A stretch of 64,000 bases of DNA from Mycobacteriales bacterium (GCA_035695045.1 DASSEX010000028.1:27504-91503), one strand, 5' to 3'. Numbered from the stretch's first letter, positions 1,275-62,948 are shown. Notes: a model not told the origin generated them from the sequence alone. Program-made: numbers and translations.

Positions 1275-2387
1275 TCAGACCTTGGGGATCGAGCCGTAGC
1301 CCTCGACGGCATCGACCCCGCGGTTGGCCGGGCCGACGTACTTGGCGGACGGCCGGATGAGCCGGCCGGTGCGCTTCTGCTCGAGGATGTGCGCGCTCCA
1401 GCCCGCGACGCGCGCGCACGCGAACATCGACGTGAACATGTGCGCGGGAACCTCGGCGAAGTCGAGGACGACTGCCGACCAGAACTCGACGTTGGTGGCG
1501 AGCACGCGGTCGGGGTAGCGCTCCTTGAGCTCGGCGAGCGCCGCCTGCTCGAGTGCGTCCGCGATCTCGACGCGAGGCGATCCGAGCTCCTTCGCCGTAC
1601 GCCGCAGGACGCGGGCGCGTGGGTCCTCGGCGCGGTAGACGCGGTGACCGAAACCCATCAGCCGCTGCTTGGAGTCCAGGAGCCGCTTGACGTAGCGGCG
1701 GGCGTCGCCTTCCTCGGCAACCTCGTCGAGCATCCTCAGCACGCGGGAGGGCGCGCCGCCGTGCAGCGGGCCCGAGAGCGCACCGATCGCGCCGGAGAGG
1801 CAGGCCGCGACGTCGGCGCCGGTCGAGGCGATGACGCGCGCGGTGAACGTGGAGGCGTTCATGCCGTGCTCGGCCGCGGACACGAAGTAGGCGTCGACGG
1901 CCTTCACGTGCGCCGGGTCGGGCTCACCGCGCCAACGGACCATGAAGCGCTCGACGATCGTGTCGCTCTCGTCGATGCGCTTCTGGGGGACCATCGGCTG
2001 GCCGAGACCGCGAGCGGACTGCGCGACGAACGACATCGCCGTGACGGAGCACCGGGCCAGGTCGTCGCGCGCCTGCTGGTCGTCGATGTCGAGCAGCTGC
2101 TCGAGGCCCCATGCCGGGGCCAGCGTCGCGAGCGCGCTCTGCACGTCGACGCGGATGTCACCGGAGTGCACCGGGACCGGGAAGGGCTCGGCGGGCGGCA
2201 GGCCCGGGGCGAAACGACCGTCGACGAGAAGGCCCCAGACGTTGCCGTAGGACACGCGTCCGACGAGGTCCTCGATGTCGACGCCGCGGTAGCGAAGGGC
2301 CGAGCCCTCCTTGTCGGGTTCGGCGATCTCGGTCTCGAAGGCGATGACGCCTTCCAGACCGGGCTTGAACACAGTCTCGTCCGCCAT
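1275..2387 (-). CDS. citA: citrate synthase 2 (CitA-type)
   Basis: Start ATG at 2387 ([25 protein letters not shown]...), 370 aa. Citrate synthase signatures GPLHGGA and LMGFGHRVY are present. The longer tracked ORF (to 2729) is an unlikely extension. Confidence 0.9.
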
Positions 2388-2499
2388 TGCGAGTGCGTCT
2401 CCTCGTGCGGTGGCAGGGATCACTGCCCGTGGACCGCGGGTACTGGGCTGCGGTGACCTCATTGTCCCCCGCAACGGGGCGCCTGAGACAGTCAGGGTG

Positions 2500-3171
2500 A
2501 TGGATCGTCCCGCCGACCCCGCCCGGATCTCCCAGGCGGACCTCGCCGCGATGCGCAGCGAGTACGCGGATGCCGGACTCACCGAGGACGGCGTACCTCC
2601 CCACCCGGTGCTGCTCTGGCACGAGTGGCTCGCGGCCGCCCGGGACGCCGCGCTCGCCGAGGTCAACGCCATGGTGCTGTCGACCGTGGACGGCGCCGGT
2701 GCGCCGAGCAGCCGGATGGTGCTGTGCAAGTACGCCGACGAGGCGGGATTCGTCTTCTACACGAACTACGACTCGCGCAAGGCCGCCGAGATCGACGCCA
2801 ACCCGCAGGTGAGCCTGCTCTTTCCGTGGCACCCGCTCGGGCGGCAAGTGCGCGTCGAGGGGGTGGCTGCTCGCGTCGCCGAGGAGGAGTCGGCGTCGTA
2901 CTTCGCCACCCGCCCGCGCGGTGCCCAGATCGGCGCGTGGGCGAGTCACCAGTCGTCCGTCATCCAGTCGCGCGCGGATCTCGAGCGGGACGTCGCTGCC
3001 GTCGTCGAACGGTTCGGCGAGGGCGACGTGCCGCTGCCTCCGCACTGGGGCGGCTATCGCGTACGGCCCGAGCGGGTGGAGTTCTGGCAGGGCCGTCCGG
3101 ACCGGCTGCACGACCGGCTGCGCTACGTCCGCGCCCCCGACCGCTGGCGGATCGAGAGACTGTCGCCGTGA
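2500..3171 (+). CDS. pdxH: pyridoxamine 5'-phosphate oxidase
   Basis: ATG at 2500 ([19 protein letters not shown]...). Motifs [32 protein letters not shown] and [25 protein letters not shown] are typical of PdxH. Confidence 0.9.
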
Positions 3172-4488: not shown

Positions 4489-5772
4489 ATGTCCTCCTAT
4501 GAGCTCCGGTACGACGACGAGTCGCTGCCTCTCGAGACCGTCGACGGCACTGAGCCACCGTTCGGCGTACACATCGGCAAGCTGCTCTCCACGACCGGCC
4601 GGGTGACGTTCGACCCCGGCTACGGCAACACCGCGCCTTCGGTGTCGGCCATCACGTTCATCGACGGTGACGCCGGCATCCTGCGCTACCGCGGATATCC
4701 GATCGAGCAGCTGGCGGAGAGCTCGACGTTCCTCGAGACGTCGTACCTTCTGATCTGCGGCGAGCTGCCGACGAAGGAGCAGCTGGCGGACTTCGAGCAG
4801 CGGATCAAGACGCACACGCTCCTGCACGAGGAGTTCAAGAGCTTCTTCGCCGGGTTCCCGCGCGACGCGCACCCGATGCCGGTGCTCGCGTCGGCGGTGA
4901 GCGCGCTGTCGACCTTCTACCAGGACAGCCTCGACCCCTTCGACGAGGAGCACGTCGAGCAGTCGACCGTTCGTCTGCTCGCGAAGGTGCCGACGATCGC
5001 CGCCTACGCCTACAAGAAGGCGGTCGGCCAGCCGCTGCTCTATCCCGACAACTCGCTCGGGTACGTCGAGAACTTCCTGCGCATGTGCTTCGGCGTGCCG
5101 GCGGAGCCCTACGAGGTCGATCCCGAGGTCGCGAAGGTTCTCGACATGCTGTTCATCCTGCATGCCGACCACGAGCAGAACTGCTCGACGTCGACGGTGC
5201 GGATGGTCGGCTCGTCGCACGCCAACCTGTTCGCGTCGATCTCCGCCGGCGTCAACGCCCTGTTCGGTCCACTGCATGGTGGCGCCAACCAGGCCGTCCT
5301 GGAGATGCTCGAAGGCATCCAGGCCGACGGCGGCGATGTTGCGGCGTTCGTCCGGCGGGTCAAGGACAAGGAGCCGGGCGTCAAGCTCATGGGCTTCGGT
5401 CACCGTGTCTACAAGAGCTTCGACCCGCGCGCGGCCGTCGTGAAGAAGGCAGCCCGTGACGTGCTCGAGAAGATGAACAAGCCTGACCCGCTGCTCGACC
5501 TCGCGATGCAGCTCGAGGAGGTCGCGCTCGCCGACGACTACTTCGTCGAGCGCAAGCTCTACCCGAACGTCGACTTCTACACCGGCGTCATCTACAAGGC
5601 GATGGGCTTCCCGACGCGGATGTTCACGGTGCTGTTCGCGCTCGGCCGGTTGCCCGGCTGGATCGCCCAGTGGCGGGAGATGATGGCCGACCCGTCGACG
5701 AAGATCGGCCGGCCGCGCCAGGTCTACACCGGCCCCGGCGAGCGCAAGTACGTCGCCCTCAACGACCGCTGA
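4489..5772 (+). CDS. gltA: citrate synthase (type II, GltA)
   Basis: 427 aa. Contains ITFIDGDAGILRYRGYPIEQLAE, HADHEQNCSTSTVR, GPLHGGANQ and [10 protein letters not shown], which are canonical hexameric-type citrate synthase motifs. Confidence 0.95.
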   Translation: MSSYELRYDDESLPLETVDGTEPPFGVHIGKLLSTTGRVTFDPGYGNTAPSVSAITFIDGDAGILRYRGYPIEQLAESSTFLETSYLLICGELPTKEQLADFEQRIKTHTLLHEEFKSFFAGFPRDAHPMPVLASAVSALSTFYQDSLDPFDEEHVEQSTVRLLAKVPTIAAYAYKKAVGQPLLYPDNSLGYVENFLRMCFGVPAEPYEVDPEVAKVLDMLFILHADHEQNCSTSTVRMVGSSHANLFASISAGVNALFGPLHGGANQAVLEMLEGIQADGGDVAAFVRRVKDKEPGVKLMGFGHRVYKSFDPRAAVVKKAARDVLEKMNKPDPLLDLAMQLEEVALADDYFVERKLYPNVDFYTGVIYKAMGFPTRMFTVLFALGRLPGWIAQWREMMADPSTKIGRPRQVYTGPGERKYVALNDR

Positions 5773-5861: not shown

Positions 5862-7790
5862 CTACTGGACGATGAGCGTGCCCTTCATGCCTGGGTGAAG
5901 GGTGCACAGGAACGAGTAGGTCCCGGGCTTGAGTGAGCTGACGCCGAGCACCTCCTCTGTCTGGCTCAGACCGATCAGCGGCGAGTAGAACAGTGGGCAC
6001 TGGTGCTTGCGGAACTGCCGGCACCATTTCGCCTTGCCGCTCGTCAATGCCTTGTGGTCCGCGGCGACGTCCTGTACGACGTTGTGCCGTACGACGTCGA
6101 AGTTGGCGTACTGCAGCTTGCCGCCGCGCTGCACCACCATGAGCGGCGTCGCATAGCCGTAGGACTGTGCCTGCGGCAGCGAGACGACCGTGGACTCCGC
6201 GTTCGGTGCCGCCGACGTCGGCGACGCCGCCCGAGACCCCGGCAGCGCGATGCCCGGCCGGTAGGCGATGACGTAGCCGTTCGGCAGACCGGTCATGCCG
6301 ATCGCCGCGTAGACCGTGTGCCGGGCGATGGCGACCCCGCCCCAGCTCGCCGCGACGTCACCGGCGCCGACGTCGGCACCCATCCAGTGGTGCAGCAGCG
6401 GCACGCCGGTCGCGCTGTCGTAGGCGTCGAGGAAGCCGGTCAGACCCACCGTGTAGACGATGCCGGCGGCCGTGGACACCGGGTTGCCCCAGTGCGCACC
6501 GTCGCCGATCGGTGCCACCCAGCGCGGTGTGCCGCTCGCCCGGTCCAGCGACCAGAGGTAACCGCTGATCGTGATCGGCCCGTAGACGCTCTTGCCGTCG
6601 TACGCCGTCGAGCCGACGATGCCGCCGACTGCACTGGGCGGACCCACCGGGGTCTGCCAGACGCTCTTCATCGTGCGGCCGTCGATGAGGTGGTAGTAGC
6701 CGGACTTCTGCCCGGCGCCGACGAGCACCCGGTTACCCGTGCGGATCAGGTTGGGCGAAGCGCCGAAGTCCATGTCCATGTCGGCACAGGAACCCACGCC
6801 CGTCGGGTAGTAGGGCGCCGGGTTTCCAGGAATGTCGACGCACGGCGTGCCCTGAAACGCCGTCGTGTAGGTCTCGGGTGTGCCGTCGTAGGTGCCGATG
6901 ATGTCGCCGAAGGTGCGGCTGTGCCGGTCGAGATCGACCTTGATGACGGCGTCGGCGTTCCTCGCAGGCACGTTCTCGTGGAACGGGTTGCCGGTGCCGA
7001 CGTAGGCGACCTTGGCCCTGGTGTCCACGGCAGGGGTCGACCACACGGTCGCCCCGCCCTGCTTGGCGTTCTTCGCCGGCTTCTGGACGGTGTAGACCTT
7101 CTTCAGGACGCGGCCGGCCTGTGCGCCGCGGGTCTCGATCAGGACGTAGGCGCCCTGGAACGCGTAACGCTCCGACTCCGAAGCCAGCTCAGCCGAGCCG
7201 CCCGACACGCCCTCGAACAGCACACCGTCGAACACGACCGGGCTGCCGTAGGCGTCCGCACCGTTCTGCGAGTCGGTGATGGTCTCCCAGCGCACCTTGC
7301 CGGTGCGCTGGTCGAGCGCGGCGACGTACGGCTTGCCTATGCGTCCCACCGCGACGAAGACCTGGCCCTCGGCGACGGTCGGCGACGAGGTGATCTCGTT
7401 ACCGTCCTTGTCGACCTTCGTCGACCACACCTTCTGCCCGGTGTCGGCGTTGACCGCGAACACCCAACCGGTCGTCGAGCCGATGTACATGCACCCGCCG
7501 GCGATGACCGGCGTGCCGGTGAAGTCGCCGTCGCCGCCGCCGTCCTTCGCCGAGAACGCCCATGCCTTGGTCAGGGTCGGGACGACGGTGGTCGTCAGCG
7601 TCTTCTCCGCCGGCTGGGAGCGGGTGTTGGAGGAGTCATGCCCGTACGATGGCCAGTCGCCGCCGGGCTTCGCGGGGGAGGCGCATGAGGCGGGTCGCGC
7701 CGCCGCACCGGCTGACGTGAGAGCGCCGGCGGCAGGGGCGACGAGAGCGACCGCAGCCATGACCGGCAGTAGGCGGCGCGACCCGAGCAT
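5862..7790 (-). CDS. secreted PQQ-type beta-propeller repeat protein with C-terminal cupredoxin (type-1 copper) domain
   Basis: Start ATG at 7790 (MLGSRRLLPVMAAVALVAPAAGALTSAGAAA, a signal peptide). WPSYGHDSSNTRSQP is followed by repeated A-x-D/N-x-x-T-G-x-x-x-W blades (AVNADTGQKVWST, ALDQRTGKVRWET, LIDGRTMKSVWQT, SLDRASGTPRWVA). The C-terminus ...VVRHNVV...GTYSFLCTLHPGMKGTLIVQ carries a His/Cys/His/Met blue-copper ligand pattern. The tracked ORF (to 8303) overextends into the upstream gene. Confidence 0.8.
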   Translation of the reverse strand: MLGSRRLLPVMAAVALVAPAAGALTSAGAAARPASCASPAKPGGDWPSYGHDSSNTRSQPAEKTLTTTVVPTLTKAWAFSAKDGGGDGDFTGTPVIAGGCMYIGSTTGWVFAVNADTGQKVWSTKVDKDGNEITSSPTVAEGQVFVAVGRIGKPYVAALDQRTGKVRWETITDSQNGADAYGSPVVFDGVLFEGVSGGSAELASESERYAFQGAYVLIETRGAQAGRVLKKVYTVQKPAKNAKQGGATVWSTPAVDTRAKVAYVGTGNPFHENVPARNADAVIKVDLDRHSRTFGDIIGTYDGTPETYTTAFQGTPCVDIPGNPAPYYPTGVGSCADMDMDFGASPNLIRTGNRVLVGAGQKSGYYHLIDGRTMKSVWQTPVGPPSAVGGIVGSTAYDGKSVYGPITISGYLWSLDRASGTPRWVAPIGDGAHWGNPVSTAAGIVYTVGLTGFLDAYDSATGVPLLHHWMGADVGAGDVAASWGGVAIARHTVYAAIGMTGLPNGYVIAYRPGIALPGSRAASPTSAAPNAESTVVSLPQAQSYGYATPLMVVQRGGKLQYANFDVVRHNVVQDVAADHKALTSGKAKWCRQFRKHQCPLFYSPLIGLSQTEEVLGVSSLKPGTYSFLCTLHPGMKGTLIVQ

Positions 7791-8350
7791 CAGGACACCT
7801 CGATCTTGCTGAAGTGGATGGTTCCTACATCCGCGTTCGGACAGGCACTCGACTGCTGGAGACCGAACTCGACGACGAGGGTCTTCGGGAACGGTCCCTC
7901 CGGCATGTACGGCCTCAACCCGACAGTGCCCGAACCCGTGACCGCGCCACGGACGGTCTTCAGGCCGTACCAGTGGTGGTTGCCCTTCGCGGTGTCGCGC
8001 AGTCCGAGCTGCACGAAGGTGAACGGGTCGACCGCCGCCGAGTCGTACGTCGCCACGACCTTGTGCACCGCGCGCGTCGCACGGAACACGACGAGCAGCT
8101 TCGCGTAGGGCGCGCCCTTGGTGCAGTTGATGACTCCGGGGATCGGGTAGATCCGCCCGACCGTCACGGTGCCGTCCGAGGTGGCGGAGTGGTAGCTGAA
8201 GGAGTCGCCGCCGGATGGACCGAGCTTGAACGGCGCTCCGTAGCTCTTGCTCTTGGCCGGAGCGGCGCCCGCAGGCAGGGCGACGACGAGCGCGGCGGCA
8301 CAACCGGCTGAGGCGAGCAGACGTAGAACGCGCGGCATGCGGCTCCTCAT
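7790..8350 (-). CDS. small secreted protein of unknown function
   Basis: Start ATG at 8350 overlaps the stop of the upstream gene (ATGA at 8347-8350). Its own stop overlaps the downstream ATG (ATGA at 7788-7792). N-terminal signal peptide MRSRMPRVLRLLASAGCAAALVVALPAGAAPA. Two further Cys residues. I recognise no motif. Confidence 0.65.
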   Translation of the reverse strand: MRSRMPRVLRLLASAGCAAALVVALPAGAAPAKSKSYGAPFKLGPSGGDSFSYHSATSDGTVTVGRIYPIPGVINCTKGAPYAKLLVVFRATRAVHKVVATYDSAAVDPFTFVQLGLRDTAKGNHHWYGLKTVRGAVTGSGTVGLRPYMPEGPFPKTLVVEFGLQQSSACPNADVGTIHFSKIEVS

Positions 8351-10182
8351 GGCGTGAACGGCGCGTTGGGCCACGTGTTGGCGAGCATCGCGGCGCGGGT
8401 GCGGAAGGCGGGCATCTTGTTCGTCGCGAACGGCCGCACCTCGTTCGGCGTCGCCGGGTTGATCAGGTAGCCGTCGCGGATCTTCTGCACGTCGTCGCAG
8501 TGGATCAGCTTGCGCTGCGCATCCGGGTCGACCTTGTAGACCACGGCTGCGTTGCGTCCGAAGATGTGGTTGCGGATCGTCCGCTCAGGGTGCGCCTTGT
8601 GGTCCGTCGGCCAGTCCTTGATGTGCTTGTGCGGAGCGCGATAGTTGTGCGGGCTGAGCGCGTTGACCCGCGGGTCCCACGCGTCGCCGTCCAGACCGAA
8701 GGGCAGGTTGTAGAACTCCTTCGCGCGCTGGGTGAAGTGCAACGAGCGCAGGCCGGTGATGATCGGCTGCGGCGAGCCGAACCACAGGCTGTCCGTGCCC
8801 CACGCGATCCGACGCGGGCCGACGTACGTGATCAGCTTGCCGAGCAGGTGGGTCGCCTGGTCCGGGTCACCGAGCACCGACTTCATGGTCGAGCCGATCT
8901 CGGCGTAGACGTTCGGCACGTTGCCGTGCTCGAGGCCGTGCGGGATGAAGTGGGAGGCGTCCCAGGCGTTCTCGCGCAGGCTCTTGATGAAGCAGTCGAC
9001 GCCGCGGTCGGCGGAGTTGACCTTGTCGTCGCCGGGGTAGGCGGTCTGCGTCTCGCTGTCGAAGCCCGAGTGGTAGACGACGAAGTGGATGTCGGGGTTC
9101 TGCCGCGCGGCCGGGCCGATGTCGCGCGGTGAGGCCGCACGGTGGTCGAAGGCGGGCAGCGCGAAGCCCTTGTGGCAGGCGATGACCGGCGGGCCGCCGA
9201 TCTTCGTCAGCTTGCGCACCTGGTCGATGAACGCCATGCCGATCTCGTCGTCGAGGAACCAGCCGCTCGCGTACGGCACGTCGCCCCACGGGGTGTAGAC
9301 CTTCCAGCCCCGCAGCGCCTTGTGGAAGCTGCGGACGTGCTGCTCCATCAGGTCGAACTCGGCCTGCTGGTAGACCGGCCGCTGGTTCTTCGCATAGGGC
9401 TGGATGCCGTAGGAGCCGCGGTTCGGCATCGCGAACGCGTGCATCACAGCGCGCTGCGTCCCGCCGGCGAGGTGGTTGACGACGTTGACCGTGTCGTAGG
9501 CCTCGGGCGTCGGCAGCGGCTGTTGCGACTCTTCGGAGGGGACGCACGACAGCACGGTCATGTTGGTCGACGAGTCGAGGTAGAGCGTCTTGAGGTAGTG
9601 GTAGCGCGACAGGTTCTCGATCGGGTCGATCTCGCCGCCTTGCCCGAAGCCGTAGATGTGGCCGTCGGACCCGACGTGCGGCTCGCCGCCCAGCGGGCCG
9701 GACTGCGTCCACAGCGCCATGAAGGCCGCATGCACGCCTGGGTTGTTGATCCGCCAGGCGGCCGTGCTCGACGAGTCGACGTGGTGCGTCTGGACGTCGA
9801 AGATGAACTCGCCGGGCAGGTTGTTGAGCTGCGCCTCCGGATACTCCAGAGCGCACGCGTCATCACCGATGGGTCCGCCGCCGGCCGCCTCGCCGATGCC
9901 GGCGCCGGGCAGGTAGCGCCCCCACTTGCCTGGCATGACCTGGTTGATCGCCCAGAAGCCGACACCGATGGCGCTCGCGCTGCGCACGAACGTCCGGCGG
10001 GAGAGTCCCATCTTGTGCCGGACCTCTTCGGCGCGTTCGTCCTGCAGCCGCATCACCTGCAACTGCTGCTGAGTCGGCGGCGGCGGGATGAACTCGCCGT
10101 TCGACGCCGGGAGGACGTCGACCGGCATCCGCTCCGACAGCGTCGACCACCGGTCGAGGTGCCGACGTACCCAATCCGTCAT
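8347..10182 (-). CDS. Tat-exported amidohydrolase-family (TIM-barrel metal hydrolase-like) protein
   Basis: 611 aa. ATG at 10182 lies 7 nt after AGAGGAGA. Twin-arginine motif SRRTFVRSASAIGVGFWA at residues 61-78. Segments FDVQTHHVD, IACHKGF, VVYHSGF and IAWGTDSLW resemble amidohydrolase_2-type metal ligand positions. Confidence 0.6.
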   Translation of the reverse strand: MTDWVRRHLDRWSTLSERMPVDVLPASNGEFIPPPPTQQQLQVMRLQDERAEEVRHKMGLSRRTFVRSASAIGVGFWAINQVMPGKWGRYLPGAGIGEAAGGGPIGDDACALEYPEAQLNNLPGEFIFDVQTHHVDSSSTAAWRINNPGVHAAFMALWTQSGPLGGEPHVGSDGHIYGFGQGGEIDPIENLSRYHYLKTLYLDSSTNMTVLSCVPSEESQQPLPTPEAYDTVNVVNHLAGGTQRAVMHAFAMPNRGSYGIQPYAKNQRPVYQQAEFDLMEQHVRSFHKALRGWKVYTPWGDVPYASGWFLDDEIGMAFIDQVRKLTKIGGPPVIACHKGFALPAFDHRAASPRDIGPAARQNPDIHFVVYHSGFDSETQTAYPGDDKVNSADRGVDCFIKSLRENAWDASHFIPHGLEHGNVPNVYAEIGSTMKSVLGDPDQATHLLGKLITYVGPRRIAWGTDSLWFGSPQPIITGLRSLHFTQRAKEFYNLPFGLDGDAWDPRVNALSPHNYRAPHKHIKDWPTDHKAHPERTIRNHIFGRNAAVVYKVDPDAQRKLIHCDDVQKIRDGYLINPATPNEVRPFATNKMPAFRTRAAMLANTWPNAPFTP

Positions 10183-10209: not shown

Positions 10210-12225
10210 TCAGCCGACGACCTTGAAGGCGCCACGCATGCCGGGGTGAATCCGGCAGAAGAACGTGTAGACGCCGTCGCGAGTCGGGGTGAACGTCCAG
10301 TAGATGCCGTTCTCCATCCACTGCTGGTCGTAGGGCTCGCTGCCGCCGACCTGCGACTTCGAGGGCTCGAAGAGCATGCCGAAGCCGATCTCCATCGACT
10401 CGAAGTTCATCGCGTCGCCGGCACTGCCGTTGCCACCGTCGGCCACCGGATAGTTGACCGACGTCGGGCCGCTGCAGGGATATCTGCACGCGGTGAACGT
10501 GTGGTAGACCTTCGAGCTCGCGTCGAGGTTCCAGAACCGGACCGGCGTTCCGCGCTGGACCGTCGGGATGCCGGTCGCTCCGATGACACCCTGGTCGGCC
10601 TGGCCGTAGGTGAAGCCGGCGGCATAGATGTCGGTGACCATCTGGCCGGTCTTGTTCGTCAGCGGCGGACAGGTCTGCTTCGTGCACGGCGGCGACGTGT
10701 CCTGGTTCTCCTTCAGCGCGCCGTGTGTGACCTGGCCGTGCAGGCACAGGACCTTGTGCGGGCCGGTCAGGCTGGGGTGGCACACCTTCGGCCGGTAGTT
10801 GAAGACGAACGGGCCCTTCGGCAGCTTCGCCTGCGCGGCAACACCGTCCACGATCTTCACGTGGTCGTTGAAGACGTCGACGCCGGGCGGGCCGTGCGGG
10901 TCCTTCGGCGCGATGTAGCCGACGACGATGCCCATGTTCTCGTACCAGGACGAGATCTGGTTGTCGTAGACCGCGTTGAGCCGGATGATGTCGCCGGCCT
11001 TGACCTTCACCTTCCAGTCGAGCGGCGCTCCTGTGACGGTCATGGAGAAGTCCCACGACGTCGGCGGGCCACCCGCCCGCGATGGGTTGGTGTGGCTCCA
11101 GTTGACGGCGTCGGAGTCGAAGATCGGCTTCTGCACACCGTGGCGCACCAGGCTCACCTCGTCGCGGATGCCGCCCGGGTGCAGATGGCCACCGAGGCCG
11201 ATGATCGTGCCGGCCATGTCCGGCGTGACCTTGTAGTCGGCGCCCGCGATGTCGGTGTGCAGCTTCTGTTCGGAGATGCCCTGCTGCGGTGACTTGTGGC
11301 CGTAGACGTCGAAGTTGGCGCAGTTCTCATCCGGCCAGGTGCACACGTGGTGATGTGTGAGCGGGTCGATGTGGCCGAAGCCGCGCTGCACGTTGAAGAC
11401 CGGGTTGGCGCCGGTGCTCGGCGCACCCTTGTAGATCGCCTGGCGCTGCACGTCGAGCCACAGGGGCTTGGCCTCGACGATGCCCTGCTTCTCGGCGGAT
11501 GCCTGCGGCACGAAGTCGATGTCGTAGGTCAGCCACACCGTGTCCGGGTTGGCCTCGGCGTCGTGAACCATGTAGAGCAGGCCCCACGCGTCGTTCTGAC
11601 CGACGTGCATGCCGTAGCCGGTCGGGAAGTCGGCGATCGTCTTCTCCTCGCCCGCGGCGAAGAACGGGCCGGACCCGTAGGACTGGCCGAGGTTGAGCCA
11701 TGTCGCGTGGTGGAGGTGGAGCTGCTCCACCGGCGGGACCGACCCGTCGCTCGCGCGCACGAGACCCGGCAGGAAGCGGACGATGAAGCCGTCGTACCGC
11801 GGCTGCTCGATCGTCGTCGGCCGCAGCATCGCGTCGTTCATGCCCGGCCGCACGTTGATCGGCCCGAACGCGAAGTGGATCCGCTTGCAGTCCTTGTAAC
11901 GATGCGCGTTGACGTAGCTGCCCTCGTAGGGGTTCGTCGGCGTGCATGCGTCGCCCGGCACCTGCTGGATGAACGCCGGGTCCGGGTGCGGTGGCGGTGC
12001 GGTCGGTGCGTTGTAGATCTGGTGGTCCGGCCCGATGATCACCGTGTGCGCTGGACCGGTCGTCGGCAGGAACGTGCCCCCCGTGGCGACGGGCTGGAAG
12101 TACTGACGCACACCGGGTGAAGCCGTCGCGGCTCCGACGACTCCCGTGCCGGCGACCACCATGAGGGCGCAGCCCCACATGAGCGCGCGGTGAGCGGTGC
12201 GGGCAGGCTGCGGCCACATCGACAT
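10210..12225 (-). CDS. secreted protein with PHM/DBH-like copper monooxygenase pattern, Cys-rich linker and C-terminal cupredoxin domain
   Basis: 671 aa. ATG at 12225 follows GGAGGA. Signal peptide present. Ordered ligand-like pattern LHLHHATW (H172/H173), LLYMVHD (H221), GGHLHPGG (H347/H349) and WYENMGIVVGY (M431). C-terminal VYHTFT ... YTFFCRIHPGMRGAFKV gives type-1 Cu ligands. Confidence 0.65.
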   Translation of the reverse strand: MSMWPQPARTAHRALMWGCALMVVAGTGVVGAATASPGVRQYFQPVATGGTFLPTTGPAHTVIIGPDHQIYNAPTAPPPHPDPAFIQQVPGDACTPTNPYEGSYVNAHRYKDCKRIHFAFGPINVRPGMNDAMLRPTTIEQPRYDGFIVRFLPGLVRASDGSVPPVEQLHLHHATWLNLGQSYGSGPFFAAGEEKTIADFPTGYGMHVGQNDAWGLLYMVHDAEANPDTVWLTYDIDFVPQASAEKQGIVEAKPLWLDVQRQAIYKGAPSTGANPVFNVQRGFGHIDPLTHHHVCTWPDENCANFDVYGHKSPQQGISEQKLHTDIAGADYKVTPDMAGTIIGLGGHLHPGGIRDEVSLVRHGVQKPIFDSDAVNWSHTNPSRAGGPPTSWDFSMTVTGAPLDWKVKVKAGDIIRLNAVYDNQISSWYENMGIVVGYIAPKDPHGPPGVDVFNDHVKIVDGVAAQAKLPKGPFVFNYRPKVCHPSLTGPHKVLCLHGQVTHGALKENQDTSPPCTKQTCPPLTNKTGQMVTDIYAAGFTYGQADQGVIGATGIPTVQRGTPVRFWNLDASSKVYHTFTACRYPCSGPTSVNYPVADGGNGSAGDAMNFESMEIGFGMLFEPSKSQVGGSEPYDQQWMENGIYWTFTPTRDGVYTFFCRIHPGMRGAFKVVG

Positions 12226-12316
12226 GCGGAGGTCCTCCGTCGGAACGGGACAGGGCTACGCAGGCGTCGTCTGGGGTCCGGCCTGTGGTGGAGGTTCGAT
12301 AGAAGCGGTAGCGATT

Positions 12317-12382: not shown

Positions 12383-12994
12383 TCAGTGACGCATCAGAAC
12401 GTGCGCACGTGCTGACCCTGTGTCGACAGGCTCGGCGCGGTAGGGGTCGGTGGCGAGGGCGCGGACCGCGCCCAGACCTCGTACGGCGACCAGCGCAGCG
12501 CCGAGTACGGCGACGCCCGCCATCACTGCCGCGACGATGACCGGCCAGGTGGGCTGAGCCGGCGCGGGCAGGGCGGAAGCGAATCCGGTCAGAGCGGCCC
12601 CTGTAGATCCAGGGGCGCCGACGGCGAAGCCGAAGACGCCGCTCTCGACGTGCCCGTCGTCGGAGAGGATCCGCCAGCCGACGAAGTAGCGCCCGGCCGG
12701 GAGTCGCCCCGGCACGGACGCCTCGAGCGTCTTGCCGCCGACGACGCGCGGAGCACCGATGGGTTCCGGCGCACCCGTCGCGCCACTCACGACGAGGGAC
12801 CGCGGCACGAGCCGCACCGGGTCGTCGAACACGACGCTGACGACACTGATCCGGCCGCCGATCGTCGCGCCGTTCGCCGGCGTCGTACGGATGACACGCG
12901 CATGAGCCTGTGCCGGTCCGGCGGTGAGGACCACGGAGAAGAGCGCTCCACCTACGGCGAGAGCCGAGCGCGCGATGCGACCCACACGTGTCAT
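12383..12994 (-). CDS. copC: CopC-domain copper-binding protein with C-terminal membrane anchor
   Basis: Start ATG at 12994 overlaps the copD stop (ATGA). Signal peptide ends AQA, then HARVIRTTPANGATIG gives the N-terminal His of mature CopC. GRYFVGWRILSDDGHVESG is the typical CopC beta-sandwich end. A C-terminal TM helix follows. Confidence 0.85.
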   Translation of the reverse strand: MTRVGRIARSALAVGGALFSVVLTAGPAQAHARVIRTTPANGATIGGRISVVSVVFDDPVRLVPRSLVVSGATGAPEPIGAPRVVGGKTLEASVPGRLPAGRYFVGWRILSDDGHVESGVFGFAVGAPGSTGAALTGFASALPAPAQPTWPVIVAAVMAGVAVLGAALVAVRGLGAVRALATDPYRAEPVDTGSARAHVLMRH

Positions 12995-13971
12995 GCCGCA
13001 ACCGGGTTCTGTCGCAAGAGGACCTCCGTGACGACCAGGACAGCGATCAGCCCGATCTGCTCGATGGCGACGTTCATCCTCAACGCAGCAAGTGCTGAAA
13101 CGTCGCCGGCGGCCGCAGGGCGGACATGCCGAAAGTGATTGGTCGCGGACACCACGAGCATCGCTGCGACGAGACCGACCTTGATGATGAGCACCTGGCC
13201 GTACGCCGTCGACACCAACGCGTGCCAGGAGGAGACGTAGAGCGCGGCGAGCCCGACACCGCCGGCGAGCAGCATGACGATGACGCCGGTCATCAGCCCG
13301 GCGAACGTCACGAGCACGTGGGTGCGACGAGCCGGATCGACCGTGTGTCGATGCAGGGTCACACCCAGACCGGCGAGCCCGCCCACCCACGCGCACGCCG
13401 CAACGACGTGCGCGAACAGGCAGACCAGCACGACGAGTGTCGGACCGTGACTGCGTGCGTGGCCGGCCAGGAGGAAGCTGCCACTGACCAGAGCCCCGCC
13501 GCCGAACATCAACAGTCGCCGCGACGTCGGCGTGAGTCGCACGACGGAGAACGCTGCGGCCACCAGACAGAGGCCGGCGCATCGAGCCAGCGCGGTCTCG
13601 TATGCCGCGCCGCGCAGGACGGCGTCTCGCGCCAAGCCGCTGCCCAGGCCGCGCAGGCCCTCTCCTGCCACGTCCATGACGGAGAATGCGACGGTCAGCA
13701 ACGTTGCGGCGAAGCCGGCGATCGTGGCCTGCCGGACGGCGGCTCCCCACCACACCTGGCCGTCGGTCGGATCGCCGAGCAGCGCGGTGAAGAACGCCAG
13801 TCCGGCGGCAGCCACCGCGCAGACGAGAGCCACCCCCTCGACGGCGTACAGGCCGAAGGGCGGAACCGCCAGAGACGCGGCCAGCAACGACGTGGCGAGC
13901 AGCAGCCCGACATTGCGCAGCGCCGCCGGAGGCAACCGCAGCGCCGGCGCCTCGACGGGTAGCTCGGCCAT
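12991..13971 (-). CDS. copD: CopD-family copper transport membrane protein
   Basis: 326 aa, about 8 TM helices. His-containing helices (LAGHARSHGP, LFAHVVAACAW) are translationally coupled to copC, the classic copCD arrangement. Confidence 0.8.
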   Translation of the reverse strand: MAELPVEAPALRLPPAALRNVGLLLATSLLAASLAVPPFGLYAVEGVALVCAVAAAGLAFFTALLGDPTDGQVWWGAAVRQATIAGFAATLLTVAFSVMDVAGEGLRGLGSGLARDAVLRGAAYETALARCAGLCLVAAAFSVVRLTPTSRRLLMFGGGALVSGSFLLAGHARSHGPTLVVLVCLFAHVVAACAWVGGLAGLGVTLHRHTVDPARRTHVLVTFAGLMTGVIVMLLAGGVGLAALYVSSWHALVSTAYGQVLIIKVGLVAAMLVVSATNHFRHVRPAAAGDVSALAALRMNVAIEQIGLIAVLVVTEVLLRQNPVAA

Positions 13972-17041: not shown

Positions 17042-17824
17042 ATGAGCGACTACCCCACCTCGATCGGCACGGCCGATGAGCACTCCATCACGCTGCTGGG
17101 CAAGGACCTGCCCGGTGAGCTGCTCGGTCAGATCGGTTTCGCCGAGCTCGCGTTCTGGCTCGTTGCGCTGCGTCGGCCCACTGCCAGGCAGCTGCGGATG
17201 TTCGAGGCCGTCCTCGTCGCGCTGGCCGACCACGGGTTCACGCCGACCGCGATCGCGGCGCGCCTGACGCTGCTCAGCGCCCCGGACTCGTTGCAGGGAG
17301 CGCTGGCGGCAGGCATCCTCGGCGGCGGCTCGCGCTTCCTCGGGGTGACGGAGGACGCCGGCATCTTCCTGGCCGGCGCGCTGATGCGTCGCGGCGATGC
17401 GCTCCCCGGCGATCCGGCCGGTTGGGACGACCTCGCTCGTGAGGTGGTGACCGAGACACGCGCGGCCGGCCGCTTCGTCCCGGGTCTGGGTCATCCGCTG
17501 CACAAGTCCGGTGACCCGCGGACGCCCGTGATCTACCGGATCGCCGACGAGGAGGGCGTGCGCGGCCCGCATCTCGAGCTGTTCGCTGCCATCGGCCGGG
17601 TGCATCCCGAGATCCTGGGTCGGACCCTTCCTCTCAATGGCGCCGGAGTCTGCGGCGCAGCCCTCGCCGACCTCGGCCTGCCACCGGAGCTCCTCCGGGG
17701 GTTCGCGCTGCTTGCGCGAACTGCCGGCCTGCTCGGTCATCTCGCGGAGGAGATGCGCCGGCCGATCGGCATGCAGGTCTACGACGCCGTGGACCGGTCG
17801 GCCCACTACCTCCCGCCGGGCTGA
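17042..17824 (+). CDS. short citrate-synthase-fold protein (citryl-CoA lyase-like)
   Basis: 260 aa. PGLGHPLHKSGDPR corresponds to the citrate synthase GFGHRVYK active-site segment. LADHGFTPTAIAAR and ARTAGLLGHLAEE match the C-terminal domain only. Confidence 0.7.
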   Translation: MSDYPTSIGTADEHSITLLGKDLPGELLGQIGFAELAFWLVALRRPTARQLRMFEAVLVALADHGFTPTAIAARLTLLSAPDSLQGALAAGILGGGSRFLGVTEDAGIFLAGALMRRGDALPGDPAGWDDLAREVVTETRAAGRFVPGLGHPLHKSGDPRTPVIYRIADEEGVRGPHLELFAAIGRVHPEILGRTLPLNGAGVCGAALADLGLPPELLRGFALLARTAGLLGHLAEEMRRPIGMQVYDAVDRSAHYLPPG

Positions 17825-17827
17825 CCG

Positions 17828-18601
17828 TCAGGTCGCGGTGCCGACCGCGACGACCTTGGTCGGTTGCGTCGGCACCTGGTCGGCCCGCTCGACGCTCATC
17901 GCGAAAGCGGCGGTGTCGTCGTAGGGGATCGCCAGTGACACAGAGCGGCCGGCCTTCGATGTTGCGATGTCGGGCAACGCCGTCACCGGCGTCGGCCTGC
18001 CGTCGCGTGGCATCTGCCAGAGCACATACACGTGCGACGCATCGAGTGCGGGCATCGCCGTCGGCACGACTGAGGCTGATCCGCCTCGGACGAGGACGTC
18101 TCCCGCTTCGACCTTGCCCTCGGCGAGCAGCCGGACGACATGGCATCCGGGGCTGCTCTTGCACGCCGCGACCGCGCTCGGCACGCCGCCGGAGCCGTGG
18201 GATCGGCTCGTGACCTGCCAGCCGGCGACTCCGATGCCGATGAGGCCGACGACCGCAGCCGCTGCCGCGAGCAGCCGGGCGTGTCGCCTCCGCATCTGCA
18301 GCACGACACCGTCCGCCGGCGGCGCAGGCGAGGGTTGCGGCTGTCGGGACTCGGAGCGGTCCGGCGCTGTCGCGATGACCGGGCGGATGCGTGACCACGG
18401 CGGCGCCGCCGTCGCCGCGTCGTCAGCGAGCGATGCGAGCTGGGCCGCCACGAGTGAGTGGTCGTCGAGGGTCTGCTGGCAGGTCTGGCAGCCGGCGAGG
18501 TGGCTCGTGAAGATGGCCTCGTCGTCGGGTTCGAGCGCGTGCAAGGCGTACCCCGCCGCCAGCTCCGCCCAGTGGGCGTCGTCGTGCGAAGCGCCGCTCA
18601 T
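17828..18601 (-). CDS. anti-sigma factor (zf-HC2 N-terminus, single TM, RskA-like extracytoplasmic domain)
   Basis: 257 aa. HLAGCQTCQQ (H-x3-C-x2-C), TM helix LLAAAAAVVGLIGIGVAGW, and a C-terminal YVLWQMPRDGRPTPV pattern. Its ATG overlaps the sigma gene stop (ATGA at 18598-18601). Confidence 0.8.
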   Translation of the reverse strand: MSGASHDDAHWAELAAGYALHALEPDDEAIFTSHLAGCQTCQQTLDDHSLVAAQLASLADDAATAAPPWSRIRPVIATAPDRSESRQPQPSPAPPADGVVLQMRRRHARLLAAAAAVVGLIGIGVAGWQVTSRSHGSGGVPSAVAACKSSPGCHVVRLLAEGKVEAGDVLVRGGSASVVPTAMPALDASHVYVLWQMPRDGRPTPVTALPDIATSKAGRSVSLAIPYDDTAAFAMSVERADQVPTQPTKVVAVGTAT

Positions 18602-19185
18602 GACCGCCCTCCTTCGGCAGGGTCGTCGCCTTCGATGCCGGCCAGCCGGTCGCGCATTCGTCGCATCGCGCCGAGGGTGCGGCTCTTGACCGTCCCGAGA
18701 GGCAGACCGGTCATGTCGGCGATCTCGCGCTGCGTGTAGCCGCCGTAGTAGGCGAGCAGCAGCACCTCACGCTGCTCGGCCGGCAGAGTGCGCAGCGCCT
18801 CGCGAGTGCGCTCAGCACGCCACCGGGCCCATGCCTCGTCGTCCGGCCCCGGTCCTGCGGCGGCCTTCTCGAGCAGGGCCTGGTCGCTGGCGATACGCCG
18901 CCGCCGGTTGCCCTCACGCCGGACCGAGTCGACGGCCTTGTGGTGCGTCATCGACAGCAGCCAGGTGCTGACGGCGCCACGGCGAGGGTCGTATCCGGTG
19001 CCCTGCCAGAGCGCGAGGAACACCTGCTGTACGACGTCCTCGGCGAGCTGGGCGTCGTCGATGATGCGTCGGGCGAGGCGGTAGCAGGCTCCGCCGTACC
19101 GCTCGTAGAGCGTCTCGATGGCAGATTCGTCGCCGGTGCCCACACGTTGCAGCAGCACGGCATCTTCGAGCGCCGCGGGGCTCAT
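18598..19185 (-). CDS. ECF RNA polymerase sigma factor (SigK-like)
   Basis: Start ATG at 19185 follows AAGGAGAGCG. It has region 2 (DVVQQVFLALWQ, STWLLSMTHHKAVD) and region 4 (LLLAYYGGYTQREIADMTGLPLGTVKSRTLGAMRRMR). Confidence 0.85.
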   Translation of the reverse strand: MSPAALEDAVLLQRVGTGDESAIETLYERYGGACYRLARRIIDDAQLAEDVVQQVFLALWQGTGYDPRRGAVSTWLLSMTHHKAVDSVRREGNRRRRIASDQALLEKAAAGPGPDDEAWARWRAERTREALRTLPAEQREVLLLAYYGGYTQREIADMTGLPLGTVKSRTLGAMRRMRDRLAGIEGDDPAEGGRS

Positions 19186-19228
19186 GGCGTCGCTCTCCTT
19201 CCGCATCGATCGGGTCCGCATGCAACAT

Positions 19229-19270
19229 GTTCGCCCCCGGAAGCGAAACGGATCGCTTCCGGGGGCGAAC
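19229..19270 (-). terminator. perfect 18-bp stem hairpin upstream of the sigma gene
   Basis: gttcgcccccggaagcga (19229-19246) pairs exactly with tcgcttccgggggcgaac (19253-19270), with a 6-nt loop. It lies 43 nt upstream of the sigma start codon and 95 nt after the lipoprotein stop. Confidence 0.55.
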
Positions 19271-19305
19271 GGTGGCGCATGGCGCCGGCGCGGGGGGCCG
19301 GCAGC

Positions 19306-19349
19306 CAATCGCCACATGTCGGCCATCTATGGCCGGGATATGGCGATTG
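19306..19349 (-). terminator. 44-nt imperfect palindrome just after the lipoprotein stop
   Basis: Structure is caatcgcca-catgt-cggccat-ct-atggccg-ggata-tggcgattg: a 9-bp outer stem, a 5x5 internal loop and a 7-bp inner palindrome. It starts 16 nt after the stop at 19365. Confidence 0.5.
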
Positions 19350-19364: not shown

Positions 19365-20624
19365 TCAGGAGGAGAAGGTGCCGGGCTTCGCCGCCGCGAT
19401 CGCCTTCGCCAGTGCGGCAGCCGTTCCCGGCATGTGCATCTCCGCCATCGCGAGCTGGTGCGCTGCGTCGGCCTGGCCACCCACGATGGCGTCGATCGCC
19501 GCCTCGAGCGTCTGGACGTGGCCGACCAGCTCGGTCGCGACCTGGTCGGACGTCAGGCCGTTGTTCGTCGCGGCAGCGATGAAGTCACCGAAGTCGCGGC
19601 GGTAGCCGTCGAGCTCCTTGTTGGCCTTCGCCTTCAAAGCGGCGTCCTTGCCGACCACGCCCTTCGTGTAGTCGACGAAGAAGCCGATGTGCGCGTTCCA
19701 CAGGTCGAGGAACTTCTGCTGCGCGTCGGTGCCGTAGATCTGACCGATCGCCGCACCGAGGGCGTTCGTGTTGGCCGTGAGCGCCTTGATGGCGCCCTTC
19801 GTCTGCGGCGACGTGAGGCTGCCCGTCTGCACCACCGTCTCGATGACGATGCCGGTCTGCGCGACGTGCTGGGTGAGTAGGCCAGTGAGGCCGGCCCGCA
19901 GGCCGCTGCCTGCGCCGTCGGCCTTGCCCGGCAGGTTCTTCGCCGAGGCGATGCCGCCGGCAAGCGCGGCGGCGGTGCCGTCCATGTGGTCGGCGGCCAT
20001 AGAGATCTTCGTCGCCGCGTTCGGGCTCTTCGCCACGATTGCGTCGATCGCAGCCTCGAGGGTCTGGACGTGACCGGTGAGCTCCTGTGCGACGGCGTCC
20101 GCCGGGAGCTTGCCGCCGGTGGCCTTGTCGATGAAGGCGCCGAACTCGGTGCGGTAGCCGTCGAGCTGCTTGTTCGCCTTCGTCTTCAGAGCTGCGCTGT
20201 GGGTCAGGTCGCCCTTGATGTAGGTGACGAAGAAGCCGATGTGCGCGTTCCACAGGTCGAGGAACTGCTTCTTGGCCGCATCGCCGTAGAGCTGCCCGAT
20301 CGCGTCACCGAGGTCGTTGGTGTTCTGCTGCAAGGCGGCGACAGATCCCTTGACCTGCGGGTCGTCGAGGCTGCCCTTTGCCACCAGGTCCTGCACGACG
20401 AAGGCAGTGAGGTCGACGTGCTGGCGCAGGAGTGCGTCGAGTCCCGCTCGCAGCTGTGCGGCTGCAGTGTCCGTCACCGGGCTTGCAGGCGCGCTCGCAC
20501 TGCTCGGCGGTGCGTTCTTGGTGGTGGCGGTGTCGCCGCCCGAACTGCTGCCTCCGCAGGCCGTCGCGGCCAGCGCGACAGCCGTCAGGCCGAGTGCGCT
20601 CTTGGTGAGCAGGTTGAGCTTCAC
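19365..20624 (-). CDS. lipoprotein with two tandem ~180-aa helical repeats, unknown function
   Basis: 419 aa. Lipobox LAATAC. Two paralogous halves share FLDLWNAHIGFFV.Y.KG, ALK.KANK.LDGYR..FG.FI and EL.GHVQTLEAAIDAIV. A 39-nt stretch is identical at 19676-19714 and 20228-20266. Confidence 0.8.
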   Translation of the reverse strand: MKLNLLTKSALGLTAVALAATACGGSSSGGDTATTKNAPPSSASAPASPVTDTAAAQLRAGLDALLRQHVDLTAFVVQDLVAKGSLDDPQVKGSVAALQQNTNDLGDAIGQLYGDAAKKQFLDLWNAHIGFFVTYIKGDLTHSAALKTKANKQLDGYRTEFGAFIDKATGGKLPADAVAQELTGHVQTLEAAIDAIVAKSPNAATKISMAADHMDGTAAALAGGIASAKNLPGKADGAGSGLRAGLTGLLTQHVAQTGIVIETVVQTGSLTSPQTKGAIKALTANTNALGAAIGQIYGTDAQQKFLDLWNAHIGFFVDYTKGVVGKDAALKAKANKELDGYRRDFGDFIAAATNNGLTSDQVATELVGHVQTLEAAIDAIVGGQADAAHQLAMAEMHMPGTAAALAKAIAAAKPGTFSS

Positions 20625-20660
20625 GGTGCTTCCTTTCCGGGGCAGGGGAACGCGCGTCGC

Positions 20661-21080
20661 CTAGTGGACGACGAGCTCGCCGGTCATGCCGGCCTTGCTG
20701 TGGAACGTGCAGACAAAGCGGTAGACGCCGGGCCGTAGATCGTGCAGCCGCACCAAAGTCGTGGGTGCACTGCCGATCGATGTGCCGACAGTTCTCGACG
20801 TGACGTGCAGCTGCGGGAACGAGATGTTGTGCGGATAGGAACCGGATGCCACGAGACGCAACGTCACATCGCCGACTGTCGCGGTGACATGAGGCGGCGA
20901 GAAGCGGAAGGCATCGTTGGCGGTCACGGTGATGACGTGAGAGCTCGCCGCCGCCGGCGTGCGCTGGTTCGACGTGCTGTTCCCGCAACCGGCGGCGGCG
21001 AGGAGAAGCCCCACGAGGGCAAGGTGTCGCTTCACGGGCCGTTGTTCGTCGTTGCCGCGCAGCTGGATCGACCGAACCAA
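20661..21080 (-). CDS. cupredoxin (plastocyanin/amicyanin-like) lipoprotein
   Basis: Lipobox LLLAAAGC. Type-1 Cu ligand pattern YPHNISF ... YRFVCTFHSKAGMTGELVV. The start is uncertain: TTG at 21080 or GTG at 21035. Confidence 0.75.
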   Translation of the reverse strand: MVRSIQLRGNDEQRPVKRHLALVGLLLAAAGCGNSTSNQRTPAAASSHVITVTANDAFRFSPPHVTATVGDVTLRLVASGSYPHNISFPQLHVTSRTVGTSIGSAPTTLVRLHDLRPGVYRFVCTFHSKAGMTGELVVH

Positions 21081-21920: not shown

Positions 21921-21987
21921 TAGCCGCGGACTCCGACGGTAGCGGGTTGCGGGCCGGCGCTGCAGGAAAATGATCACACCCGTTCGG

Positions 21988-22060
21988 TGCCCCCGGCAGG
22001 ATTCGAACCTGCGGCACACGGTTTAGGAAACCGTTGCTCTATCCCCTGAGCTACGAGGGC
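21988..22060 (-). tRNA. tRNA-Arg (anticodon CCT)
   Basis: Reverse complement is GCCCTCGTAGCTCAGGGGATAGAGCAACGGTTTCCTAAACCGTGTGCCGCAGGTTCGAATCCTGCCGGGGGCA. It folds as a cloverleaf with a 7-bp acceptor stem, anticodon stem ACGGT/ACCGT, loop TTCCTAA and a GGTTCGAATCC T-arm. CCA is not encoded. Confidence 0.9.
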
Positions 22061-62872: not shown

Positions 62873-62948
62873 GGGGCTGTAGCGCAGTTGGTAGCGCGCT
62901 TCGTTCGCATCGAAGAGGTCCGGGGTTCGACTCCCCGCAGCTCCACCA
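62873..62948 (+). tRNA. tRNA-Ala (anticodon CGC), CCA encoded
   Basis: Sequence is GGGGCTGTAGCGCAGTTGGTAGCGCGCTTCGTTCGCATCGAAGAGGTCCGGGGTTCGACTCCCCGCAGCTCCACCA. It has the G3:U70 identity pair, anticodon loop TTCGCAT and T-loop GGTTCGA. Confidence 0.9.

Follow-up and report, generated by a model that had tools for sequence, protein, structure and literature searches.

A gene at positions 10210 to 12225 (minus strand) of a 64,000-nucleotide stretch of DNA from a Mycobacteriales bacterium (GCA_035695045.1, DASSEX010000028.1:27504-91503; the whole stretch is called the window below) encodes a 671-amino acid secreted protein that is, on balance, probably a three-copper monooxygenase. It would combine a catalytic core of the type found in peptidylglycine alpha-hydroxylating monooxygenase (PHM) and dopamine beta-monooxygenase (DBH) with a tethered type-1 copper domain that feeds it. 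In the proposed scheme, H172, H173 and H221 would form a His3 “CuH-like” site, and H347, H349 and M431 a His2Met “CuM-like” site that activates O2. The blue copper (H575, C657, H660, M663) would accept single electrons from an external protein donor and hand them to CuH, the tethered cupredoxin standing in for the ascorbate of animal PHM/DBH. Electrons would then pass from CuH to CuM, which, by analogy to PHM, would bind O2 and hydroxylate a C-H bond of an extracytoplasmic substrate. In the clade of this protein the likely donor would be a quinoprotein-like propeller with its own cupredoxin, encoded in the same operon, and an amidohydrolase-like protein encoded there probably processes the substrate or product. 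Copper occupancy, hydroxylation chemistry, the direction of electron flow, the substrate and the roles of the partners are all inferred; the results below show the similarity in fold, the conservation of the ligands, the near-universal fusion of core and cupredoxin, the conserved gene order, and a natural chain that unites core and propeller.

The gene is a single long open reading frame enclosed by these coordinates, with an ATG start and its stop codon at 10210-10212; the initial annotation had described the same 671-residue frame, without giving the minus strand. A GC content at third codon positions (GC3) of 0.92 is the coding signature of a genome with about 70% GC. All motifs and residue numbers given in that annotation proved exact, with LHLHHATW at residue 169, LLYMVHD at 216, GGHLHPGG at 345 and WYENMGIVVGY at 427, and with H172/H173, H221, H347/H349, M431 and H575/C657/H660/M663 in place. 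The hydrophobic stretch of about residues 1-35, ending in A-T-A before S, reads as a probable Sec signal peptide, and matches to homologues mostly begin only at about residue 75-113. The gene and its product are laid out as follows.

12233 to 12238, minus strand: Shine-Dalgarno sequence GGAGGA, 7 nucleotides upstream of the ATG, read directly from the sequence.
10210 to 12225, minus strand: whole gene, encoding the secreted PHM-like catalytic core plus cupredoxin (open reading frame, translation, GC3, homologues).
12121 to 12225, minus strand: residues 1-35, probable Sec signal peptide (…VVGAATA followed by SP), a lone helix of low pLDDT.
11974 to 12120, minus strand: residues 36-84, N-terminal extension, poorly conserved and of low model confidence (pLDDT 38-66).
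11476 to 11973, minus strand: residues 85-250, N-subdomain beta-sandwich, predicted counterpart of the PHM CuH subdomain (Foldseek; hhalign of residues 117-211 with PHM 63-161, PAM numbering).
10816 to 11475, minus strand: residues 251-470, C-subdomain, predicted counterpart of the PHM CuM subdomain (Foldseek; pLDDT profile; GD anchor in hhalign).
10651 to 10815, minus strand: residues 471-525, linker with C482/C494 and T500-H501-G (C482, C494, T500 and H501 each in 63 of 64 orthologues).
10213 to 10650, minus strand: residues 526-671, amicyanin-like type-1 cupredoxin domain (Foldseek; profile matches over the ligand loop).

The fold of the catalytic core was predicted with AlphaFold2 without templates, once for the full-length protein (40-sequence alignment, mean pLDDT 76) and once for residues 85-470 (70-sequence alignment including a subfamily of about 35% identity; pLDDT 87.4, pTM 0.87). 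When the full-length model was compared with the Protein Data Bank (PDB) using Foldseek, the top 25 matches were all PHM or DBH (E about 1e-7, probability 1.00), and for the domain model the top 31 were all PHM or human DBH (E 3e-9 to 7e-7, probability 1.00), with about 360 aligned columns covering both subdomains. After these came a double-jelly-roll capsid protein at E 1.7e-5, about 10^4 weaker. Residues 85-470 are thus predicted to adopt the two-subdomain, all-beta sandwich core of the PHM/DBH type. The initial annotation would have been refuted had neither sequence models nor structures matched this fold; the structure comparison gave clear matches, and the PHM sequence models gave none (see below). 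An insertion of about 55 residues in the C-subdomain (about 260-335) was modelled with lower confidence. Copper nitrite reductase (NirK) and multicopper oxidase entries (6HBE, 9CCK) also appeared in the first Foldseek list, but their TM-scores were 0.11-0.19 and they were gone once the cupredoxin had been removed, so that this identity was rejected.

The candidate copper ligands were followed in two alignments, one of 64 orthologues from GTDB species genomes (38-95% identity) and one of 340 complete catalytic domains (31-97% identity).

11707 to 11718, minus strand: H170-L-H172-H173, with H172/H173 as proposed CuH ligands (PHM H107/H108; conservation, and HH paired with HH in hhalign).
11563 to 11565, minus strand: H221, proposed third CuH ligand (PHM H172; LLYMVHD paired with VLQVHYG in hhalign).
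11179 to 11187, minus strand: H347-L-H349, proposed CuM ligands (PHM H242/H244), located where a beta-strand of the model ends.
10933 to 10935, minus strand: M431 in Y-E-x-M-G, proposed CuM methionine (PHM M314).

H173, H347, H349 and M431 are present in all 340 domains and H172 and H221 in 339 each, so the conservation that the initial annotation expected of its candidate residues holds in an alignment reaching down to 31% identity; in the smaller set, H170 and all six ligands are found in 64/64. Residues 85-470 contain 19 histidines, six of which are conserved in at least 95% of the 340 homologues, and all five histidines singled out beforehand are among these six. The chance of such an overlap is about 5e-4 (hypergeometric), which places the ligand pattern beyond chance. 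M431 is likewise one of only two conserved methionines out of seven in the same region.

The register with PHM was examined by aligning three profiles of the superfamily, built from 40, 64/340 and 129 sequences (the last from a shorter subfamily described below), with an alignment of the genuine PHM family (A2) using hhalign. All three gave the same collinear N-subdomain alignment, with the HH pair on H107/H108 and H221 on H172, at E-values of 0.11 (40 sequences), 0.055/0.056 (64/340) and 0.034 (129 sequences). In it, FIVRFLPGLV…HLHH is paired with FVIDFKPRASMDTVHH, FAAGEEKTIADFPTGYGMHV with LYAWARNAPPTRLPKGVGFRV, and the third histidine segments with each other as listed above. The collinearity of FAAGEEKTIADFPTGYGMHV with YAWARNAPPTRLPKGVGFRV, which the initial annotation had proposed, was recovered independently, at a marginal E of 0.03-0.11. 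For its other pairing, TYDIDFVP with SVHLTRVP, the comparison spoke neither for nor against. In the C-subdomain only the strand before the methionine aligns with some confidence (E 0.011), pairing KVKVKAGDIIRLNAVYD with PVDVTFGDILAARCVFT (GDIIRLNAVYD with GDILAARCVFT). M431 lies 20 residues past this GD anchor, against 28 in PHM, and the H349-M431 spacing is 82 against 70. The distance from H221 to H347 is 126 residues, compared with 70 between H172 and H242 of PHM, an excess of 56 that agrees with the earlier estimate of about 55. The rat PHM core used for these comparisons was checked to be identical to PDB 1OPM chain A.

The C-terminal domain was compared in the same way. Foldseek matched it to amicyanin (1id2_A and 1sf3; TMt 0.60, probability 1.00), and the family profile matched amicyanin, plastocyanin and the C-terminal cupredoxin of 9CCK over the ligand loop at E 0.006-0.09, the 9CCK domain being the best sequence match (E 0.006). 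The C-R-I-H-P-G-M-R-G loop of the family aligns with C-T-P-H-P-F-M-R-G of amicyanin. These matches, together with the conservation of the ligands, uphold the cupredoxin with H575/C657/H660/M663 that had been read from the sequence. Pfam cupredoxin models miss the protein at E<=10 and match just 5 (PF13473) and 2 (PF00127) of 55 diverse relatives.

10501 to 10503, minus strand: H575, first type-1 copper ligand (64/64), followed by an invariant C580-x3-C584.
10237 to 10257, minus strand: C657-R-I-H660-P-G-M663, type-1 copper loop with the amicyanin-length spacing C-x2-H-x2-M (63/64 each).

Fusion of the two parts is the rule in this group. Of the 340 proteins whose catalytic domain is complete, 333 have the C-x2-H-x2-M loop; the other seven stop abruptly and appear to be truncated. 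This makes the fusion a defining and ancient feature of the superfamily, rather than a one-off. The linker had been called Cys-rich. One conserved pair, C482/C494, sustains this in part, while C514/C519 are variable. The T500-H501-G502 motif (10720-10728, minus strand) is kept even in the distant short subfamily. As a separate observation, C580-x3-C584 (10474-10488, minus strand) stands directly after H575. This motif and T-H-G could serve as a disulfide staple and as a residue for electron relay or for an interface.

At least 1,433 homologues of the protein were found, nearly all of them metagenomic. None has a precomputed Pfam domain, and their source names are just “plastocyanin”, “cupredoxin domain-containing protein” or “hypothetical”. 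With residues 85-470 as the query, an exhaustive search gave about 800 clusters (50% identity) at E<=1e-3, 373 of them at E<=1e-10. The 78 genome loci all derive from metagenome-assembled genomes (MAGs) and belong to Actinomycetota (Mycobacteriales/Frankiaceae, Acidimicrobiales, and Thermoleophilia including Solirubrobacterales and Conexibacteraceae), with one bin among them labelled Burkholderiales; the closest relative (95% identity) is from a soil MAG named “Mycobacteriales bacterium”. A shorter subfamily of about 490-530 residues has more than 2,100 members, which lack the insertion of about 55 residues but have the same motifs and cupredoxin. Its genes are solitary or form tandem arrays of 4-5 paralogues, e.g., an array of at least 4-5 paralogues of about 515 residues at L082:54-9578, and such arrays suggest diversification of specificity. 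A second copy of the catalytic domain was looked for elsewhere in the window and none was found.

The gene lies in a minus-strand series in the order CopD, CopC, the monooxygenase-like gene, an amidohydrolase-like gene, a secreted protein of about 190 residues, and a propeller-cupredoxin.

12991 to 13971, minus strand: CopD-like membrane protein (PF05425, E 1.3e-14), its stop codon overlapping the CopC start.
12383 to 12994, minus strand: CopC-like copper chaperone, directly upstream of the monooxygenase-like gene (PF04234, E 9e-17; NF033814; sequence).
8347 to 10182, minus strand: 611-residue protein resembling the amidohydrolase superfamily (weak PF04909 match), with an SRRTFV twin-arginine motif.
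7790 to 8374, minus strand: secreted beta-rich protein of about 190 residues (p194), with a signal-peptide-like N-terminus and an uncertain start codon.
5862 to 7811, minus strand: quinoprotein-like eight-bladed propeller plus C-terminal cupredoxin, …YSFLCTLHPGMKGTLIVQ (PF01011, PF13360, PF00127).

These proteins were compared with 80 loci using tblastn. Most of the loci that are long enough retain the order monooxygenase-like gene, amidohydrolase-like gene, propeller and cupredoxin, and this syntenic operon spans three actinobacterial classes (Mycobacteriales/Frankiaceae, Acidimicrobiales and Thermoleophilia). The cupredoxin next to the propeller is usually a separate gene in other loci. The amidohydrolase-like gene is immediately downstream of the monooxygenase-like gene in most of the 80 loci reaching far enough, and also in L001 and L002; its product is often better conserved than the monooxygenase-like protein itself and has conserved amidohydrolase-type motifs (FDVQxHH, HKG, YHSG and WGTDS). 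Searches with a single sequence or a 20-sequence profile gave no PDB relative for it, no NCBIfam model matched, and no Pfam match was above cut-off. About 58 well-conserved residues (P20, D22, P25, S27, N28, E30, P33, M44 and others) precede SRRTFV. Such a conserved stretch is unusual for a Tat signal, and could, judging from its sequence, be a cytoplasmic N-terminal domain followed by a membrane anchor. The p194 protein matches no family. Counterparts can be detected in Actinomycetia-like and closer loci only, and the Thermoleophilia loci lack the gap that would correspond to it. The propeller scores far below the cut-offs of TIGR03075 and TIGR04528, the models for PQQ (pyrroloquinoline quinone) alcohol dehydrogenases and “empty quinoproteins”.

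A further link between these genes is a 1,211-residue fusion protein (P0246, L081:3394-7029) that joins, in one chain, a catalytic domain, a cupredoxin, a quinoprotein-like propeller and a second cupredoxin. It stands alone in its locus, and supports a direct functional link between oxygenase and propeller. The gene adjoins phage-type integrase and MobL-like genes and may be on a mobile element.

Several results weigh against the assignment as a PHM-type monooxygenase. Pfam gave no matches to the protein at E<=10, PF01082 and PF03712 included, and none of the 55 relatives matched these two models at E<=0.1, whereas true PHMs from the same database carry both; NCBIfam likewise gave no match to the protein even at E<=10. 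For the catalytic part, phmmer and a family-profile hmmsearch of the PDB chain sequences found nothing and did not reach PHM, the profile search giving only weak cupredoxin matches. Identity to PHM/DBH is 11-14%, and a global hhalign comparison with PHM gives a meaningless E of 0.9. The N-subdomain E-values are marginal, and alignment of the C-subdomain alone did not place HxH on HxH, so that the register of this motif with PHM would rest on the predicted fold and motif order. TM-scores of the domain model to PHM/DBH (TMt 0.42-0.57) are moderate, in part because the subdomains of PHM hinge by about 18 degrees. The missing Pfam and NCBIfam matches, the moderate TM-scores and the presence of double-jelly-roll capsid proteins in the Foldseek list would suit a shared jelly-roll architecture without metal function, e.g., a binding module or a PNGase-F-like domain joined to a cupredoxin. 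This seems very improbable: in E-value, PHM and DBH lead all other folds by some four orders of magnitude, the six proposed PHM-equivalent ligands are invariant or nearly so in 340 sequences, and the sequence alignments, weak as they are, fell into the ligand-matching register three times independently.

Other results of the same kind concern the chemistry rather than the fold. The highest TM-scores were to 6ALA (TMt 0.57), 5WJA_D and the DBH chain 4ZEL_A (TMq 0.47), which are closed conformers (PMC6123673), against 0.42-0.50 and 0.38 for the open forms. If the protein resembles this closed-like model, its sites could behave unlike a non-coupled pair 11 Å apart. H170 (11716-11718, minus strand) is an extra conserved histidine, present in 335/340 proteins and replaced by methionine in the other five (e.g., “MFHH” in P0361). 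M219 (11569-11571, minus strand) is found in 340/340; it takes the position of PHM Q170 in the hhalign register and, being two residues before H221, lies on the same face of the strand. With these residues beside it, the CuH-like site may not be a plain PHM His3 site. The present evidence indicates no substrate, PQQ is only a candidate cofactor of the propeller, and the shorter subfamily lacks the amidohydrolase-like and propeller partners altogether.

The same fold and copper sites might serve another chemistry, as an oxidase, a peroxygenase or a coupled-binuclear enzyme in the closed state, or electrons might flow in reverse, leaving through the type-1 copper to the partner cupredoxin and the respiratory chain, with the protein acting as a dehydrogenase or oxidase by the logic of NirK or multicopper oxidases. 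The superposition on closed conformers and the invariant H170 (apart from the five methionines) and M219 would favour a site unlike that of PHM, and two cupredoxins in one operon fit an electron chain of either direction. On the other hand, the proposed His3 and His2Met set is precisely that of the non-coupled monooxygenases PHM, DBH and TBH, an apo AlphaFold2 model says little about the hinge state, and the conserved operon encodes no haem, flavin or membrane electron acceptor. We regard this alternative as rather unlikely, and retain the monooxygenase assignment.

The only named sequence family that the group touches is SURNod19 (PF07712). It is matched by 4 of the 55 diverged relatives, and by one alone (P0282) above the gathering score (E 6e-6, 25.7 bits against a cut-off of 25), over positions 276-368 of the 377 in PF07712, i.e. 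the region from HxH to the methionine. The protein itself and most relatives have no PF07712 match. Only about 100 C-terminal profile positions align, and from these sequence matches the link would be a distant relationship, not membership. A homologue search started from P0282 returned only another bacterial subfamily and no plant or fungal SURNod19 sequences. Expression of Nod19 follows copper supply via miR398, and in bean it is a copper-responsive miR398 target (PMC3882225); the plant and fungal proteins, of about 400 residues, are described without a cupredoxin and with function unknown (PMC9632046).

That this sole named relative responds to copper is one reason to consider copper handling in the cell envelope (sequestration, chaperoning, cuprous oxidation or resistance), in which the His and Met residues would only bind copper. 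Another is the position of CopD and CopC directly upstream on the same strand, the CopC having a signal peptide that leaves a mature N-terminal His, and a C-terminal transmembrane helix; a further lipoprotein cupredoxin is about 8 kb off. The CopC gene, and with it the CopD-CopC pair, is, however, confined to the three closest loci (L003, L004 and L006) of the 80, whereas the conserved partners, amidohydrolase-like and quinoprotein-like, look like enzymes. The ligands are predicted to form two discrete PHM-type sites on a PHM fold, and there are no His/Met-rich tracts, and the arrays of 4-5 paralogues in the short subfamily look like substrate diversification. Copper handling as the main role is therefore improbable in our estimation.

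Compared with PHM (1PHM, 1OPM, 6ALA) and DBH (4ZEL), the monooxygenase proposed here has the same two-subdomain sandwich and ligand order (HH…H, then HxH…M), the same collinear segments (around the HH pair, a “PxGxG” strand and the third His, and at the GD strand that precedes the Met) and an extracytoplasmic location. It differs in being bacterial (Actinomycetota) rather than eukaryotic, in the roughly 56 extra residues that separate the third His from HxH, in the invariant H170 and M219 flanking the CuH site, in an E-x-M rather than E-M methionine motif, and in its disulfide pattern, which is not conserved across the family. It has an attached type-1 cupredoxin, whereas PHM relies on ascorbate and DBH includes a DOMON domain; unlike PHM, it has no PAL partner.

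The cupredoxin shares with amicyanin and plastocyanin the fold and the H…C-x2-H-x2-M set, with a loop of amicyanin length, but is attached to the C-terminus of an enzyme instead of free-standing, and has the invariant C-x3-C after its first His. Copper nitrite reductases and multicopper oxidases with a tethered domain (6HBE, 9CCK) follow the same logic, a fused electron-transfer domain giving an intramolecular donor path; their catalytic domains, cupredoxin trimers, are unrelated to the PHM-type sandwich, and their Foldseek match was driven by the cupredoxin alone. Functional analogies are provided by lytic polysaccharide monooxygenases (LPMO) with PQQ- or flavin-dependent dehydrogenases, and by the proposed coupling of particulate methane monooxygenase (pMMO) to methanol dehydrogenase. 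There too an extracytoplasmic copper oxygenase is fed by a co-secreted quinoprotein-type dehydrogenase, an arrangement suggested here by the operon and by the P0246 fusion. LPMO and pMMO have other folds and copper sites, and in the present system both partners carry cupredoxins as the presumed interface.

Elsewhere in the window, the lipoprotein cupredoxin mentioned above (20661-21080, minus strand; PF13473, E 2.5e-11; loop CTFHSKAGM) is paired with a 419-residue alpha-helical lipoprotein that has two internal repeats of about 190 residues (LDLWNAHIGFFV.Y.KG twice) and no Pfam match. Together (19365-21080, minus strand) they look like a second copper-related pair, adjoined by genes for an extracytoplasmic function (ECF) sigma factor (18598-19326) and an RskA-type anti-sigma factor (17828-18601). 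Three citrate-synthase-family genes occur within 17 kb, at 1275-2729 (minus strand), 4489-5772 (plus strand) and 17042-17824 (plus strand), the third of which is short, its 260 residues matching the domain in the C-terminal half only. The sole Rfam/ARAGORN hits in the window, tRNA-Arg(CCT) at 21986-22060 (minus strand) and tRNA-Ala(CGC) at 62873-62948 (plus strand), are far from the locus.

The textbook examples of non-coupled binuclear copper monooxygenases are PHM, DBH and TBH, and nearly all work on them has been done in animals; the entry of electrons into CuH and their crossing from CuH to CuM are still under debate. In a full-text collection that lacks most subscription papers, we found no description of a prokaryotic PHM/DBH-like enzyme or of one fused to a cupredoxin, no structural assignment for Nod19 and no description of the operon. 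A structure-based superfamily annotation of the family may already exist elsewhere. What appears to be new here is a PHM-type core in a new kingdom, an obligatory domain architecture and an operon.

A broader proposal, which we advance tentatively and with the balance somewhat against it, is that these proteins form a widespread, unrecognised class of three-copper monooxygenases, thousands of members strong, in which a PHM/DBH-type core is obligatorily wired to its own blue copper, and that in soil Actinomycetota they serve a self-contained extracytoplasmic oxidation module. If so, the module would consist of the oxygenase with a quinoprotein-like dehydrogenase-cupredoxin and a metal hydrolase, and would return electrons drawn from one substrate or product to the activation of O2. 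It would follow that the SURNod19/MtN19 proteins of plants and fungi also belong to this superfamily and are copper monooxygenases.

Such an enzyme would bring the PHM class to prokaryotes, together with a new three-copper architecture. With an attached, spectroscopically distinct type-1 copper, a bacterial relative would lend itself naturally to timing the entry of electrons and their transfer between coppers, and should be expressible in bacteria. Through the assignment, thousands of proteins now called “plastocyanin”, “cupredoxin domain-containing” or “hypothetical” would gain a function that can be tested, and a conserved four-gene operon for extracytoplasmic oxidation would be defined in soil Actinomycetota that are abundant and uncultured. 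For the copper-regulated SURNod19 family of plants, it would provide an initial biochemical hypothesis.

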